Counted from the first letter of the stretch, positions 36,001 through 42,000 are shown. The stretch: 51,498 bases of DNA from Fibrobacteria bacterium (GCA_041746255.1 JBGTHM010000018.1:1-51498); one strand, 5' to 3'. Made by a program: the numbers.

Positions 36001-39000
36001 TGCTGCGTTCTCCCGGCTCTTCTTCTTTTTTAGGCGAGTCGAGTTCCAAAAAGGAAGAATCACCCCCTTTTTTCCAGGCGCAAGTGGCCTTTGGAGGTAT
36101 TGCCCAGGGAACCGTAGTCGTCTTGAAAACCCATCAAATCTGGGACACGATTTATTTCACCGAATCGGCTGATGCGGAAGCCGAAATCCAGATTTTCCAA
36201 AAAGCCCTGGAGGTGGCGAAAACGGAAAGCGAGTGGCTGCGAACCAAGGCAAGCCAGATTTTCGCCGAAATGGACGCCCGCATTTTTGAAACCCATTTGC
36301 TCATGTTATGCGATCCGGAATTCGTCGGCGCCATTGAGGGCCATATCCGGGAAAAGATGACCGCGCCTTTCGCGGTGAAGCTGGCGACGCGCAATCTCCT
36401 CAAAACTTTTGAAGGATCCAAAAGCGCCATTCTCGCTGCCAAGAGCGCGGATTTACAGGACGTGGCGTTAAGGCTCATCAACGCCCTGTTCGAAGTGAAC
36501 GACCCGGATAAAATCCATGAAACCCCGCTGGAGGGAGCCATAGTCGCTTCCGTGGAATTATTGCCTTCCGATCTTATCTACCTGCAAACCAAGCGGCTGC
36601 TCGGAATCATTTGCGAAAAAGGCGGCAGCACCTCCCATGCGGCCATCCTGGCGCGTTCTTTGGGTATCCCCTGTTTCATGGGCGTTCCGGGCATCACCGC
36701 CTATCTGGAAAACGGCACTCCGGTTATCCTCGACGATAACTCCCGCCTCATCTATATCCGTCCGGATGCGCATGTGCTGCGGGAATACCAGCGTCTCAGG
36801 GCGGAGCTCGACCAACGCAAGCCCCCCCAGCACGCCGTCGACTCGCATACGCGCGACGGCCGCCTTATCCGCCTGCTGGGTAACATCTCCCTGCTCTCGG
36901 ATATCGAGTTGATGCACAAATATGGATTGCAGGGCGTCGGTTTATACCGCTCCGAATTCCTGTTCATGATCCGTAATCACTTCCCGGAAGAGGACGTGCA
37001 GCTTGAGGTCTACCGCCAGGTGGTCAAGCGCTGTGAACCCCATGAGGTGACCATTCGGCTGCTGGACATCGGCGGCGACAAGCCTTTACGCTATTTCGAT
37101 TGGGGCAAAGAAGAAAACCCCTACCTGGGCTGGCGCTCCATCCGCATGCTGCTGGCCCGTAGGGATATATTCATTCCTCACCTGCGCGCCCTGTTGCGGA
37201 CTTCCATACAGGGAAACATGCGCATACTCATACCCATGATCACTCTCATGGCGGAGGTGAGGCAGACCAAAAAACTCATCAACGAAGTGCGCTTAGAATT
37301 GGAACAGGAATATGGGCACGCTTTTCCCCTTCCCCCTTTGGGGGCCATGATCGAAGTTCCCTCCGCCATCCTGCAGATTGAAGCCATTCTCGCGGAAGTC
37401 GATTTCATCGCCATCGGCACCAACGATTTGATCCAGTACCTCTTCGCCGTTGACCGGGGCAATGAAAAAGTGGCGGATTATTATCAGTCCTTCCACCCTC
37501 CCATGCTGGCGGCTTTGTGGAAAATCTGCGCAGCGGCGAAAAAAGCCGGAAAGCCCGTATCGGTATGCGGCGAAATGGCGGGGGATCCCTATGCCTTGCC
37601 GATACTGCTGGGACTGGGCCTGACCGATTTGAGCATTGCGCCCGCCGCCGCGGAAACCATACGCGACGCGATGGGAATGCTCGATACGAAATGCTGCTCG
37701 GATTTGCTGCAAAAATTGCTGGAATTGGAAACGGCCGAAGAGGTGCGTGAGGAAGTACGGCTTTTTCTCGGTCGGGAATGCCCGAACTGGCCCCAGCTCT
37801 AAAGCCGCGAGGGCGCGGACCCATCAGGCGCGGGTATGTAATTTCCCCATGACGGCGTTCACGCTTTTTTTGAAGGCGCCGTCTTTTTCCATGATTTTTT
37901 CGATGGTCTTGATGGCATGGACCACGGTGCTGTGGTCGCGGCCGCCGAAGCGCTGTCCGATGGATTTGAGCGACGCCGAGGTCAACTCTTTCATCAGGAA
38001 CATGGCCAATTGCCGGGCCTGGGCCACTTCCTTGGTGCCCCTCCCCTGCTCGATGATTTTATCCACCTCGACGGTGAAATAATTGGCGACTTCGTTGGTA
38101 ATCTCCTCGGGAGAGACTTTCTTATTGGGCCGGCTGGACGCGGTTCGATTGACGATTTCCCGCGCCAAATCCATGGTGATATCGGAATGCTTGATGGAAG
38201 CCTGTAACAGCAGCTGGCGAATGGCTCCTTCCAAAATGCGGATGTTGGAGTCGATGGCTTCGGCCAGATAGGAAATGATGTCCGAGGAAATATCCAGGTT
38301 GAGGACCTGGGCCTTACGATGCAAAATGGCTTCGCGCGTTTCCCTATCCGGAGATTGGATATCCACGAACAAGCCCCATTGAAATCGGCTTACCAACCGG
38401 TCTTCCAATCCGCGCAGCTCTCCGGGCGGAGAATCGCTGGTGAGGACGATTTGCTTGCGGCTTTGGTGCAGGGTATTGAAGATATGGAAGAACTCCTCCT
38501 GGGTTCTGTCCTTTCCGCTCATGAATTGCACGTCGTCCATGAGCAGGAGGTCGACTTCGTTGCGGTAGAAATTCGAAAGCTCGTTGATGCGGTTATGCTG
38601 GATGGACTCCACGAATTCGCGGTAAAAGGTCTCGGAAGTAACGTAACGCACCTTTTTATTGGGAAACTCGGCCGATACGGAGTTGCCGATGGCCTGCAAA
38701 AGATGGGTTTTCCCCAACCCTACGCCCCCGTAAATGAGTAACGGATTGAATTTGGTTCCGCCGGGATCGCGCGCCACCGCCTGAGCGGCCGAATAGGCGA
38801 ATTGCGAGTTGCTTCCCACCACATATTCTTCGAAGGTATAGTTGGGATTGAGGTCGATGGCCGGCATGGAAGAAAAAGAGGCGGAGGCCCGGACGACGCC
38901 GAAATTGGGCGGCAACTTGCGCAAATTGACGCGTACGTCACGGCCATTCGATTCCTGGAAGCAATGTTCGATAAGCCCCAGATAACCCTTGGTCAAATGA

Positions 39001-42000
39001 TCGAGGTCGATATTGCCGGGCACACCCAGGTTCAATTGGAACTCGCTCAGCTCGAGGACTTTCAAAGGAGCGACCCATTGCCGGAAGGCGTCTTCCGAAA
39101 GCTTTTCCTTCAATGAGGAAAGGCATAATGTCCAACTATTCGTCGAGGTGGCGGAAGGAATCAAGCAACCTCCTTTCGGGCACGTAAAAAACGAAATTCC
39201 CGCCGACGGTGGGAAGGGATAAAGATTTAGTAATTTTTCGCCTCCGTACGGAATCAGACGGTCGTCACTTCGCTACTTGTTTTGCGGGCTTTGCGTCCGG
39301 ACCCTTTCAGCCAAACTGCCTGCCCTATATAGAGATAGAGAGGGTGGAGCCGAAAAAACGGGAAAATTGGGGAGTGCCGTCCATCTCTTTCTTGCGGAAT
39401 CACTCGTTAAAGCGTTAAGATGCGTAGAATAGGCTTGGTTTCGTACCCGCGCCGGGACGGAATTTTTGAAATGGGCCGCAACAGGAGATTATATGACTTG
39501 GGTTTTTACCCCATGGCAAACTGTGGATTATATCGTATTGGCCATCGCCCTGGGGCTTTTGTTAATCCATTGGGCCTGGTGTAGCTATTTGGCTTATCCC
39601 ATGGAACTGGAAAAGCAATTGAAAAGCGGGAAATCCTGGGTCTATGTCCCTCTCCATTGGACCAAGGGCCGAAAATTCTCCCTGGCCCTAGTCACCCGCC
39701 TCTTGCTGGCCGCAACGAGTGCCGGCCAAATCGGCGTTCTCCATCACTTTTTCCCCTTTCCCCATTGGGGAGTTGCAGCCGGCGCCTTTATCGTCACTCT
39801 GCTCGTGCTATGGCGTCTACAGCGGTTTTGGGTGATGAGGCGGTATAAACAGGAAGAGGACGTTTATTTTCGCATGCACGATCAATTAAGGGACAAGCTA
39901 AGCCAGGAAGGGAAATTTCCCGCCGAAATGGCTTTTAAGAGCCTGGCCACCTACCAATTCCAGATGTACTTACGCAAGGCGGACGAAGCGGGAAACTTTC
40001 TGAGCGCTTTGAAGCGGGAAAAGAAAAGCGCCCAGGGCCAAAATAATCTGCCTCAATTGGAAGCCGTCTAGAAAGCTCCGATCGGGTCCGCCTAATTTGC
40101 TACAATTGGGTTGGATTGACCATGCCCTTTTCATCGTCCCTGCCAGCCCACCCGAACGCATGCCTGCCATGATTGCCGACTCTACTATGGCGACCCGCGA
40201 AGAAAGGGATTGGAAGGAGCGTCTGCTCGCCAACCACATCGACAATCCCCGGGATTATGCGTCTTTCGTTTTAGGTAAGGTCTCGAGAACCTTCGCACTC
40301 AACATCCATGTGCTACCCGCCTCACTGCGCCGCCAAGTTTTACTGGCCTACCTTTTCTGCCGTATGGCGGATACCTTGGAGGACGACACCCTTTTGCTTC
40401 CCCAGGTTAAAACCGGAATGTTACGGGGATTCGCAGGATTATTCCGCGAAGGGATAGGCTTCGACGCGCAATTCCACGATTTCCAAAGTTCGCTTCCAGT
40501 CGAATGGAAAGACTCGGAAAAATGGGACCATTTGCTGCTCTATCATTCCCACTGGATATTCAACGAATACCATCAGATCGGGCCCAAGGCACGGGCCATT
40601 ATCGCGCGATGCGTAGTGGAAATGTGCAACGGCATGGCCGAGTTCGCCCACAAGCAGCATGTCATCGCCAAAGACGACGCCTTCATCGAAACCGTCGAGG
40701 AGTTGGACCGGTATTGTTATTTCGTCGCCGGCACGGTGGGAATCATGCTGGGAGAGTTATTCGCGACCCACACTCCCCTCATCGGCGCTTCCCGCTTGCG
40801 CAAACTGAAAGCCCTTTCAGTTTCCTTCGGATTGGGTCTGCAGTTGACCAACATTCTCAAGGATATTCAGGCGGACGGGGAAAGGAACATCTCTTTCATC
40901 CCCGGAGCCATGCTGCGGGAAAGAAATCTCAACGCCTCGGTATTGCTCTTACCCCAGAACCGCCGGGAGGCGGAGCCGGTGCTGCATGCGCTCATCGACA
41001 AGGCCCGACTCCATCTCGAAGACGCATTGGAATATTCCTGCCTACTCCCCCGCTTCGAACCTCGGCTACGCCTATTCTGCCTATGGCCGCTTTTCATGGC
41101 CGTGGAAACCCTGGTATTGGCCGCGGAAAACCAAAACGCCCTCCGCCCCGAAGTCAAAGTGAAGATAAAACGCGAACAGGTAGAACGTATCATCCGCATT
41201 ACGGGCCTGGCCTGTTGGTCCAACTTTCTTCTACGCCGACTTTTCCGTAAGCGCCTGGAACGCCTGGATGCCGCCTTATCGGCCTACCTTACCGCTTGAA
41301 GATGCTGAGCAAAGCCAACCTGCTGCGCCTTATCATGGTCATTACGGCTTTCGCCGCGGACCAATACACCAAATGGCTTGCGCGTAAGCATTTTTCCTTC
41401 GCCGGAGGCGAGCCGGACTATTGGAAAGTGGAGCCCATACTGGGCGAGTGGCTGCGCTTTCGGCTTGTCTTTAATGAAGGAGCCGCCTTCGGACTTTCCC
41501 CCCAATCCCTATTCCCCTTTTTGCATCCCAGTCTCTTTTTCGGCCTGGTGACCCTGATTGCCGTAATCGCCTTGGGCATCTATTACTTCCGTCTCCCCGC
41601 ATGGGAGGGAACCACGCGAACCGGCATCGCCCTCATTCTCGCGGGCGCCTTCGGGAATTTCGCCGATCGCATGGCGCTCCACAAGGTCACCGATTTCATC
41701 GATGCGGGCGTGCCGGGATTCAACCCGCGCTGGCCCACATTCAATCTCGCCGACGCGTATGTGTGCGTGGGCGTGGCTTTGATATTGATACTGCCGTTAT
41801 TCCGTTCTCCCGGTCGGGGGGAAGGGGAAGTTACGTCTAACCCAGTTGCTTAAATTGGTCTTTCTGGAAACCTTTGCCATTCCAACTTGGGCCCGAATAA
41901 CATCTTGAATAGCCAATAGAAACAACCCCGGGTCTTTAGGCAATGTCAATCAGGGCTAAATTGGTAGGGGCGAAGAAAATTAAATTCCACAGAAAACAAG

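Follow-up and report, generated by a model that had tools for sequence, protein, structure and literature searches.

The genome of this Fibrobacteria bacterium encodes two full-length DnaA proteins, and the one specified by the window (the 51,498-nucleotide stretch GCA_041746255.1 JBGTHM010000018.1:1-51498, contig C18 of the assembly) is likely to be the canonical, vertically inherited DnaA that fires oriC, the other being a derived copy, probably a DnaA-box-controlled regulator and not the primary initiator. The two are referred to here as type-1 (the window gene, g00572) and type-2 (g00846). Four lines of evidence (the residues, the position on the tree, synteny and GC skew) identify type-1 as the canonical initiator and type-2 as derived. 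The preliminary description, which envisaged an arginine-finger-less regulator, had these roles the other way round: the g00572 type is canonical and the g00846 type derived.

Type-1 dnaA occupies positions 37824..39164 on the minus strand and, as read from the ORF list and the translation, encodes 446 amino acids from a TTG start codon. With the DnaA equivalog model TIGR00362 (cut-off 343.9 bits) the protein scored 487.1 bits and the 461 amino acid type-2 protein (contig C28, 2887-4272) 477.9 bits, in agreement with the earlier statement that the genome has two complete four-domain DnaAs. Their identity, previously given as 38 per cent, was measured as 37 per cent (170/458). In a Pfam profile search three domains of the window protein were above the cut-offs, all encoded on the minus strand: DnaA_N (PF11638, E 8.9e-10), which is domain I (residues 10-71, 38952..39137), Bac_DnaA (PF00308, E 4.1e-66), the AAA+ domain III (residues 105-268, 38361..38852), and Bac_DnaA_C (PF08299, E 8.4e-25), domain IV (residues 352-421, 37902..38111). 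The closest solved structure was the full-length B. subtilis DnaA chain 8btg_A (E 3e-105).

The DnaA motifs were located by alignment, again on the minus strand. Walker A (GGVGLGKTH, residues 146-154, 38703..38729) aligned with G172-K178-T179 of E. coli DnaA, Walker B (LLLMDDVQF, residues 206-214, 38523..38549) with D235/D236, and the arginine of sensor II (SNIRILEG, residues 306-313, 38226..38249) with R334, whose role in E. coli DnaA has been described (PMC4245941). The Walker A lysine, the two Walker B aspartates and the equivalents of Asp269, Arg281, Arg285 and Arg334 are all intact. Six residues are listed as reading the DnaA box, R399, P423, D433, H434, T435 and H439 (PMC7561715). Alignment with E. 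coli DnaA showed R399, D433, H434 and H439 to be conserved in the window protein, His411 of the domain IV signature GGRDHSTVVHA (37914-37946, minus strand) corresponding to H434. T435 is replaced by serine, as in 9 of 27 outgroup sequences, and P423 by lysine, at a position where only 15 of the 27 outgroups have proline.

The strings on which the earlier reading was built, LTSDSPP and RDHST in the window gene and ITSDRPP and RDYST in the other copy, were all found in the translations, but LTSDSPP does not belong to Box VII. It is the sensor-I strand (residues 241-247, 38424..38444, minus strand): in the alignments to E. coli DnaA and 8btg_A, Asp244 corresponds to E. coli D269, and Ser245 (38430-38432, minus strand), the position that had been read as the arginine finger, comes directly after it and aligns to Arg270 of E. 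coli K-12 and to R249 of B. subtilis. Box VII is EDRLVSRF (residues 254-261, 38382..38405, minus strand), and both of its arginines are present, Arg256 matching Arg281 and Arg260 (38385-38387, minus strand) matching Arg285 of E. coli. The latter two are the named Box VII arginine and arginine finger of E. coli DnaA and act between protomers (PMC4245941); R285 is given as the finger also in PMC7561715, and R264 is the finger of B. subtilis DnaA (bioRxiv 10.1101/2022.03.18.484894). Counted along the 8btg_A alignment, R264 falls on the second arginine of RLVSRF.

Conservation of these positions was counted across 27 outgroup, 38 type-1 and 38 type-2 sequences. Arg281 and the finger Arg285 are present in all outgroups and all type-1 proteins; among type-2 proteins Arg281 is kept in 8 and lost in 30, and the true finger is kept in 34 and lost in 4. 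The proposed division of labour, with the g00572 type as the finger-less partner, finds no support, finger losses being confined to those 4 of 38 g00846-type copies. That the window gene is a finger-less derivative, serving as a mixed-filament partner that uses the finger of the other copy or as a finger-less regulator, is in our view barely credible: SDSPP does depart from the common SDRPP, and 21 of the 27 outgroups have arginine at the changed position, but this residue is R270/R249 and not the published finger R285/R264 (bioRxiv 10.1101/2022.03.18.484894, PMC4245941, PMC7561715), and the finger and R281 are retained in 38/38 type-1 sequences. The alignments contradict this reading. Position 270 is arginine in only 3 of 38 type-1 but in 36 of 38 type-2 proteins and, because most outgroups (21/27) have it, type-1 has genuinely lost it as a feature of that clade. 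The serine in place of Arg270 is a lineage-specific change without a known role; a search of PMC and bioRxiv for literature on DnaA R270 found nothing.

The two types also differ in the part of the protein that reads DNA. His434 is histidine in 27/27 outgroups, 38/38 type-1 and only 5/38 type-2 sequences; Asp433 or His434 is altered in 37 of the 38 type-2 copies, the altered DNA-reading head of the clade being His434Tyr or Asp433Asn. One or more of R399, D433, H434 and H439 are altered in 4/38 type-1 versus 38/38 type-2 proteins. Eight core residues for ATPase activity and oligomerization are all intact in 35 type-1 and 7 type-2 proteins, the type-1 exceptions (genomes G006, G009 and G041) being without the sensor-I aspartate and the sensor-II arginine. 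Walker A, Walker B, sensor I and sensor II are kept in all 38 type-2 copies. In the type-2 protein of this genome's own family R281, R285 and R334 are retained and His434Tyr is the sole difference, so this copy may still be an active initiator.

The phylum-wide occurrence of the DnaA pair, claimed before, was borne out in 121 Fibrobacterota genomes that were at least 90% complete, this one included: 107 had two PF00308 matches, 12 had one and 2 had three. In two control phyla genomes with two matches numbered 1/61 and 0/51, which supports the view of an old, vertically inherited and unusual pair of full-length proteins. A literature search confined to PMC and bioRxiv found no mention of a dnaA pair in Fibrobacter or other Fibrobacterota. 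Among the 12 single-match genomes, the only copy scored better with the type-2 query in 10 and was type-1 in 2. All are draft assemblies, and type-1 is frequently located on a short contig, or next to an AT-rich spacer where a contig ends, so its absence may be an assembly artefact; alternatively, type-2 could be able to serve alone. These genomes bear on the idea that the two copies are redundant or alternating initiators, either of which fires the origin while one or the other decays by lineage. Type-2 alone in ten genomes and type-1 alone in two would fit it, as would the sensor residues lost in 3/38 type-1 and the finger lost in 4/38 type-2 proteins. Taking into account, however, that the single-copy genomes are drafts, that G041, G006 and G009 have core changes in both copies, that a DNA-reading residue is changed in every type-2 protein and that the GC skew of genome G038 switches at type-1 (see below), we regard redundancy as rather improbable.

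The separation of the two types on the tree was also upheld: a branch with SH-aLRT support of 99 sets type-2, a phylum-specific clade, apart from all other sequences, and type-1 clusters with the DnaA proteins of other phyla, with Marinisomatota as the nearest outgroup. The trees were quick searches with SH-aLRT as the sole support measure, outgroup sequences were chosen by hand (27 of 80 loci), and the AU test was run on a 57-row subset in place of the full 104-row set.

Gene order distinguishes the types as well. Among 38 type-1 loci, yidC was found in 24, dnaN immediately downstream in 19, rnpA in 17, yidD in 13, recF in 8, trmE in 5 and DciA in 4; the 38 type-2 loci had none of the seven. 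In most other families of the phylum the order is the classical one, trmE-yidC-yidD-rnpA followed by type-1 dnaA, an AT-rich spacer and dnaN-recF-dciA, and where type-1 dnaA, spacer and dnaN occur together, rnpA/yidC are usually upstream. The observation that both genes lie apart from dnaN is correct for this genome, in which dnaN, recF, dciA, yidC and trmE are on contig C112, away from the window gene, but not for the phylum, since dnaN follows type-1 in 19 of 38 other genomes. The type-1 gene has moved away from dnaN in the class to which this genome belongs. A place beside oriC and dnaN, found for the orthologues in those 19 genomes and not for the window gene, is a common trait of DnaA and not a defining one.

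The dnaA-dnaN spacer of the classical type-1 loci carries TTATCCACA/TTATCAACA boxes. In most of the 19 loci it is about 230-300 bp long with a GC content of about 0.16-0.33; two spacers exceed this length, and their GC content reaches 0.45. The exact box TTATCMACA occurs in the spacer at 3.67 per kb, with at least one in 17/19 loci, and upstream of type-2 at 2.83 per kb, with at least two in 23/37 loci. Upstream of type-1 its density across the phylum is 0.04 per kb (1 in 23.7 kb). The boxes in front of type-2 have the same orientation in 64 of 66 cases, and the array extends to the start codon, one box abutting the ATG and one box pair overlapping the start codon.

The contig G038:C2, which holds both dnaA types, was the one contig tested for a skew switch at type-1. 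GC skew was negative in 16/16 2-kb windows between 50 and 82 kb and positive from 82 kb, the flip coinciding with rnpA, type-1 dnaA and dnaN; type-2, at 344 kb, sits within a uniformly positive stretch. In the complete genome G085 the switch was at neither dnaA gene. It is therefore very unlikely that the array in front of type-2 serves as a second origin of replication with its own initiator. Its exact boxes, at least two in 23/37 regions and nearly all co-oriented, are what recommends such a reading, but the skew switches at type-2 in neither G038 nor G085, the upstream regions inspected have no spacer as AT-rich as that between dnaA and dnaN, and a box pair over the start codon is as expected of gene control.

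The origin of the genome studied here was not located by box scans and GC skew. Near the window dnaA there is one near-consensus box, TAATCCACA at 39522, and no cluster. The genome has 43 exact TTATCMACA sites in 4.59 Mb with no pair within 400 bp, and a scan for TTATCCACA that allowed a single mismatch found 23 perfect sites and 980 with one mismatch but no cluster, the maximum in any 600-bp stretch being three matches, of which no more than one was perfect. No clear origin emerged from GC skew on C18, where it was ambiguous, or on C28, and the dnaN contig C112 had neither a skew switch nor a box cluster. The complete genome G043, of the same family, had 18 exact boxes, unclustered, versus 49 for a reversed-pattern control, and its sampled GC skew was noisy and placed no origin.

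From these sequence comparisons a division of roles can be proposed in which type-1 would fire oriC and type-2, its production placed under DnaA-box control, would probably have a regulatory function and not be the primary initiator; its targets may be a shifted set of boxes, or it may enter or cap assemblies of DnaA. The roles first suggested for the window gene, in a mixed filament or as a regulator, are possible for the derived copy. More specifically, and as a tentative model that we would not yet favour over its negation, Fibrobacterota may have a two-DnaA circuit: canonical DnaA fires oriC, and an ancient, full-length, DnaA-box-controlled Tyr434 paralog with weakened Box VII feeds back on initiation or on a DnaA regulon through shifted boxes or filament capping, the finger having been shed in some lineages and takeover being possible in others. 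An obligate hetero-oligomer at oriC, in which type-1 would give the Box VII contacts and type-2, with its weak Box VII and changed DNA head, would end or tune the filament, seems unlikely, though less so than the redundancy discussed above. It is attractive in that both copies are retained in 107/121 genomes, that R281 and R285 make inter-protomer contacts (PMC4245941) and that R281 is lost in 30/38 type-2 proteins which nevertheless keep Walker A/B and sensors I and II in 38/38. Yet the own-family type-2 retains both R281 and R285, both kinds of box are present at both sites, and a single copy was seen in 12 genomes.

Compared with DnaA of E. coli, B. subtilis and A. aeolicus (TIGR00362), the window protein has the same four domains, Walker A and B, sensors, Box VII and box-reading residues, and its orthologues occur in the order rnpA, dnaA-oriC-dnaN-recF. 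It differs in that Arg270 is replaced (by serine here, by a non-arginine residue in 35/38 type-1 proteins) and in that its gene is away from dnaN with no box cluster nearby. E. coli and B. subtilis dnaA are autoregulated via DnaA boxes in their own promoter; type-2 likewise has such boxes, both in the promoter and at the start codon, but here they precede the paralog and not the canonical gene (0.04 per kb).

With NF009087 (PRK12422), which we take to represent the chlamydial form of DnaA, the window protein scored 243.9 and type-2 202.7 bits, the cut-off being 657. Fibrobacterota would be an independent case, in free-living bacteria. Chlamydiae, too, keep more than one full-length DnaA throughout the phylum; the multiple paralogues (Waddlia DnaA1/DnaA3) are treated as a bifunctional initiator/transcription factor (PMC4989314). 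Hda/HdaA, DnaA-derived AAA+ regulators of initiation, may offer a functional analogy for type-2, but Hda is without domains I and IV and both Fibrobacterota copies are full length. With TIGR03420 (Hda, cut-off 194.8 bits) type-2 scored 97.3 bits. The window gene was rejected as Hda/HdaA on its score of 106.7 bits and the presence of domains I and IV.

dnaA is normally a single-copy gene, and how DnaA is controlled is among the central problems of bacterial cell-cycle research. Here a free-living phylum has retained a second full-length DnaA since its origin, in which an otherwise invariant DNA-reading histidine is replaced and whose promoter carries the sole DnaA-box array outside the origin among the loci examined. 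The pair is a natural experiment on how initiator specificity and self-control might be divided over two proteins, and the second, altered copy is worth testing. There is also a practical side: in one complete Fibrobacterota genome the coordinates begin at the derived copy and the GC-skew origin is at neither dnaA, so that origin calls equating dnaA with position 1 are unreliable in this phylum.

In the window, the spacer between type-1 dnaA and its divergent neighbour (301 bp, 39165..39465) was read and had no DnaA-box cluster. The neighbour, c10 (39466..40071, plus strand), is a conserved 201 amino acid gene of unknown function without a Pfam match, which adjoins type-1 dnaA in this class; 8 loci have it beside that gene, along with genes for SQS_PSY and LspA. 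For a conserved neighbour of type-2 an Atlas look-up gave a single lead, DUF5610 (score 0.93).

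The window gene (dnaA, 37824-39164) had been described in the preliminary description as lacking the Box VII arginine finger, its LTSDSPP standing for SDRPP. This assignment was re-examined in an alignment of the E. coli K-12 dnaA product with both DnaA copies of 38 Fibrobacterota genomes, the letters expected at the named E. coli positions being verified by script. The E. coli stretch reads LTSD(269)R(270)YPKEINGVED-R(281)-LKS-R(285)-F, and its LTSDRYP pairs with LTSDSPP of the window protein (residues 241-247), so Ser245 stands in place of R270. According to PMC4245941, D269 is sensor I, R281 Box VII, R285 the arginine finger and R334 sensor II of E. 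coli DnaA; R285 is likewise named the Box VII finger in PMC7561715. In the window protein EDRLVSRF (residues 254-261) provides Arg256 at R281 and Arg260 at R285. Positions were also counted along the printed alignment with the B. subtilis chain 8btg_A, starting from residue 209: K222 and T225 fall in GKEQTQ and R264 in RLRSRF, in agreement with the published ssDNA residues K222/T225 and finger R264 (bioRxiv 10.1101/2022.03.18.484894). Window Arg260 lies opposite R264, and the arginine of SDR is B. subtilis R249. The window gene thus retains its arginine finger: LTSDSPP was a mis-assigned motif, with Ser245 at R270 and not at R285. No paper on R270 was found in the collections of PMC and bioRxiv papers searched. 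PMC3905854 gives Y271H, at the residue adjoining R270, as a change in DnaAcos, which shows that the stretch is able to affect DnaA behaviour and says nothing on R270 itself.

The interval 37824-39164 carries a single ORF (minus strand, 446 aa, TTG start), in whose product Pfam recognizes DnaA_N (residues 10-71), Bac_DnaA (105-268) and Bac_DnaA_C (352-421). The protein scores 487.1 bits with the NCBIfam equivalog model TIGR00362 (cut-off 343.9), and its top solved-structure relative is 8btg_A, a full-length DnaA chain (446 aa, E 3e-105). It is below the cut-off of NF009087 (243.9 bits vs 657). An Hda-type identity was rejected, the score with the Hda model TIGR03420 being 106.7 bits for a cut-off of 194.8. 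All sequence-level features of DnaA that were tested are found in the window gene, the only one lacking being an adjoining dnaN, a common but non-defining trait of DnaA genes; judged by its sequence, it is an ordinary, intact DnaA. A scan of the 130 contigs of its genome (G000) with PF00308 gave exactly two matches, the window gene and C28:3256-3744. The latter lies in a 461-aa gene (C28:2887-4272) whose product scores 477.9 bits with TIGR00362 and is 37% identical (170/458) to the window protein. Since both ORFs are full-length and above the TIGR00362 cut-off, G000 has two complete dnaA genes, as the preliminary description had stated. Once the finger loss is discounted, interest shifts from the window gene to the second copy. 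Orthologues of the two genes across Fibrobacterota are called here type-1 (window gene) and type-2.

PF00308 was searched in 121 Fibrobacterota genomes with a completeness of 90% or more, G000 among them. Two matches (E 1e-10 or better) were found in 107, one in 12 and three in 2 (G026 and G110), which upholds the claim of a phylum-wide pair. When the 12 single-match genomes were typed by the better-scoring query, 10 had type-2 only (G036, G046, G048, G054, G061, G068, G094, G096, G102 and G114) and 2 had type-1 only (G100 and G118). Often a type-1 gene sits at the end of a contig or on a short one, G078:C198 (4,591 bp) and G064:C422 (5,210 bp) being examples; therefore the absence of type-1 from single-copy genomes may be due to assembly loss. 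As controls, the phylum of a Marinisomatota MAG had one match in 60/61 genomes and two in 1/61, and the phylum of a Latescibacterota MAG, searched with the type-2 query, had one match in 48/51, none in 3/51 and two in 0/51. A Poribacteria MAG (G125, reached via locus L178) has a weaker second PF00308 match (150 bits, 401-aa frame) beside its DnaA.

For phylogeny, both copies of the 38 genomes were combined with E. coli DnaA and 27 of 80 named loci, chosen by hand to cover a broad taxonomic range (one is a Fibrobacteria MAG, the other 26 are outgroups). In a quick IQ-TREE run (104 rows, LG+C20) a branch with SH-aLRT 99 set all 38 type-2 rows apart from the rest, in line with the separation of the two types claimed before; type-1 grouped with the DnaAs of other phyla, and the same family groupings recurred within both types. 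A 57-row subset tree (15 genomes) gave support of 87 for a type-1 clade, 99 for a type-2 clade and 71 for Marinisomatota next to type-1. In the AU test a topology holding type-1 and type-2 together was not rejected (lnL difference 3.08, p 0.294). This outcome therefore allows a duplication in the stem of the phylum followed by faster change of type-2, and the split may also stem from an older origin or transfer. On average, type-1 shares 37.2% identity with the outgroups and type-2 shares 34.7%. The closest published parallel to the pair is the DnaA paralogue set of Chlamydiae (PMC4989314); in the collections of PMC and bioRxiv papers searched, none was found that deals with a pair of dnaA genes in Fibrobacter or Fibrobacterota.

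The residues at key positions were counted in 27 outgroups (26 named loci and E. coli), 38 type-1 and 38 type-2 copies. Arg at R270 is present in 21/27, 3/38 and 36/38, respectively; Arg at R281 in 27/27, 38/38 and only 8/38 (His in 19 type-2 copies); and Arg at R285 in 27/27, 38/38 and 34/38, the four exceptions being type-2 of G034 (Gln), G063 (Phe), G085 (Pro) and G103 (Gln). For R334 the values are 27/27, 35/38 and 38/38, and the same values were obtained for Asp at D269. The full set of eight core ATPase/oligomer residues is retained in 35/38 type-1 and 7/38 type-2 copies. Type-1 of G006, G009 and G041 has neither the sensor-I Asp nor the sensor-II Arg, which counts against reading type-1 as intact. 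In G006 and G009 the yidC-side synteny of type-1 is retained; G041, a 1.6-Mb genome, has none of these neighbours. Both copies are fast-evolving in G041 and in family f8 (G006, G009 and G034).

His at H434 was found in 27/27 outgroups, 38/38 type-1 and 5/38 type-2 copies (Tyr in 33). Among the base-reading residues R399, D433, H434 and H439 (list taken from PMC7561715), at least one is changed in all 38 type-2 copies and in only 4/38 of type-1. The type-2 changes are H434Y in 33 copies, D433N with His retained in G004, G007, G010 and G016, and H439I in G009. In the family of G000 (G000, G043, G077 and G101) no core residue of type-2 is lost, and H434Y is the sole difference.

To compare gene neighbourhoods, ORFs lying no more than about 3 kb from a copy were clustered and cluster representatives were scanned against Pfam. 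Type-1 is accompanied by YidC (24/38 loci), DnaN (the beta clamp, directly downstream, 19/38), RNase P protein (17/38), YidD (13/38), a protein of no known family between dnaN and recF (11/38), RecF (8/38), TrmE (5/38) and DciA (4/38), in the order trmE<yidC<yidD<rnpA<, dnaA>dnaN>(unknown)>recF>dciA; none of the eight occurs at any of the 38 type-2 loci. The earlier statement that neither dnaA is next to dnaN holds for G000, where contig C112 carries yidD, yidC, trmE, dnaN, recF and dciA, and fails for the 19 loci with dnaN directly downstream of type-1. A gene of about 425 aa without Pfam match lies between dnaN and recF in G000 (C112:19485-20792), as in 11 type-1 loci, and recurs there in many of the phylum's families. 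In the class of G000 (families f1-f4) type-1 is flanked by an uncharacterised gene of about 200 aa and genes for a squalene/phytoene-synthase-like protein, LspA and a pseudouridine synthase, and the window shows this set. The window also has a GAF-domain PEP-utilising enzyme (PtsP-like, 35436-37802) convergent with dnaA, and upstream of it a GlgE-like maltosyltransferase (33244-35004). Further on, at 42014-47473 and 48722-49942, a cluster of three genes, for DUF3375, DUF4194/MksE and a 1127-aa SbcC/Rad50-like ATPase, resembles an MksBEF/Wadjet-type condensin system and is followed by a tyrosine integrase.

Divergent upstream of type-2 a conserved, uncharacterised protein without Pfam match is encoded at 18/38 loci, including G000 (C28:1746-2435, minus strand); its DUF5610-like match in Atlas (score 0.93) is a lead only. 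Other type-2 neighbours are an MlaD-like protein (14/38), a STAS protein (12/38), a response-regulator/PAS/GGDEF/HD protein (11/38) and FliD (7/38).

DnaA boxes were counted as exact TTATCMACA; G103 was left out because its two DnaA ORFs fell outside the clustered DnaA set. In most of the 19 loci where dnaN follows type-1, the dnaA-dnaN spacer measures about 230-300 bp and its GC is about 0.16-0.33; two loci have a longer spacer, with GC up to 0.45. The spacer contains TTATCCACA and TTATCAACA boxes and, after them, an AT-rich stretch. It has 30 boxes in 8.2 kb (3.67/kb; at least one in 17 loci). Upstream of type-1 (-500 to +150, 37 loci) there is one box in 23.7 kb (0.04/kb; one locus). Upstream of type-2 (37 loci) there are 66 in 23.3 kb (2.83/kb), with at least one in 27 loci, two in 23 and three in 14, and downstream none in 15.7 kb (0.00/kb). 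A single orientation is common to 64 of these 66 boxes. A tandem pair lies about 200-250 bp before the type-2 start, and another box abuts the ATG, as TGT(T/G)GATAAcATG. TTATCAACA makes up 47/66 of the boxes at type-2 promoters vs 14/30 in the spacer; the genomes share ancestry and do not count as independent samples, so this excess is a weak hint that box preference may be shifted at type-2 promoters. The type-2 promoter of G000 has only a degenerate pair, TGTGAATAG, five bases and TGTGGATAA. Consensus boxes are scarce in the family of G043 and G000, where the consensus may have drifted. Exact TTATCMACA occurs 18 times in the whole G043 genome, vs 49 for a reversed-pattern control, and 43 times in the 4.59 Mb of G000, none clustered. 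Type-2, a full-length DnaA paralog kept across the phylum, combines an altered DNA-reading head and an eroding Box VII with a box-laden promoter, and we infer that it may act as a regulator.

In G000 the origin was not placed by GC skew or DnaA-box scans, the same outcome as reported before. Both types are on one contig in G038 (C2, 353,479 bp), where the skew is negative in 16/16 2-kb windows between 50 and 82 kb and positive from 82 kb. Type-1 (81,616-82,923) and dnaN (83,200-84,357) are at the switch, flanked by trmE, yidC, yidD and rnpA (78.2-81.2 kb, minus strand), and type-2 (343,959-345,296) is inside a stretch where the skew remains positive up to the end of the contig; therefore the origin-type switch is at type-1. 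For G085, a complete genome of the same class as G000, skew was sampled from 20 stretches of 20 kb and two intervals were then filled. Its chromosome (C1, 3,843,004 bp) has an origin-type switch at about 2.17-2.205 Mb and a terminus-type switch at about 0.21-0.225 Mb. The record begins at type-2 (172-1476), type-1 is at 446,687 (0.447 Mb) and dnaN at 2.100 Mb. Thus the terminus lies between the two dnaA genes, about equally far from each, and neither gene is at the origin indicated by the sampled skew. Within the skew-minimum plateau, about 85 kb from dnaN and far from dnaA, a 650-bp AT-rich intergenic spacer adjoining an EF-Tu-like gene (C1:2184290-2184945, locus L047) contains four box-like sites, TTATCCACA, two TTATCAACA and TTATCCCCA, and is a candidate oriC.
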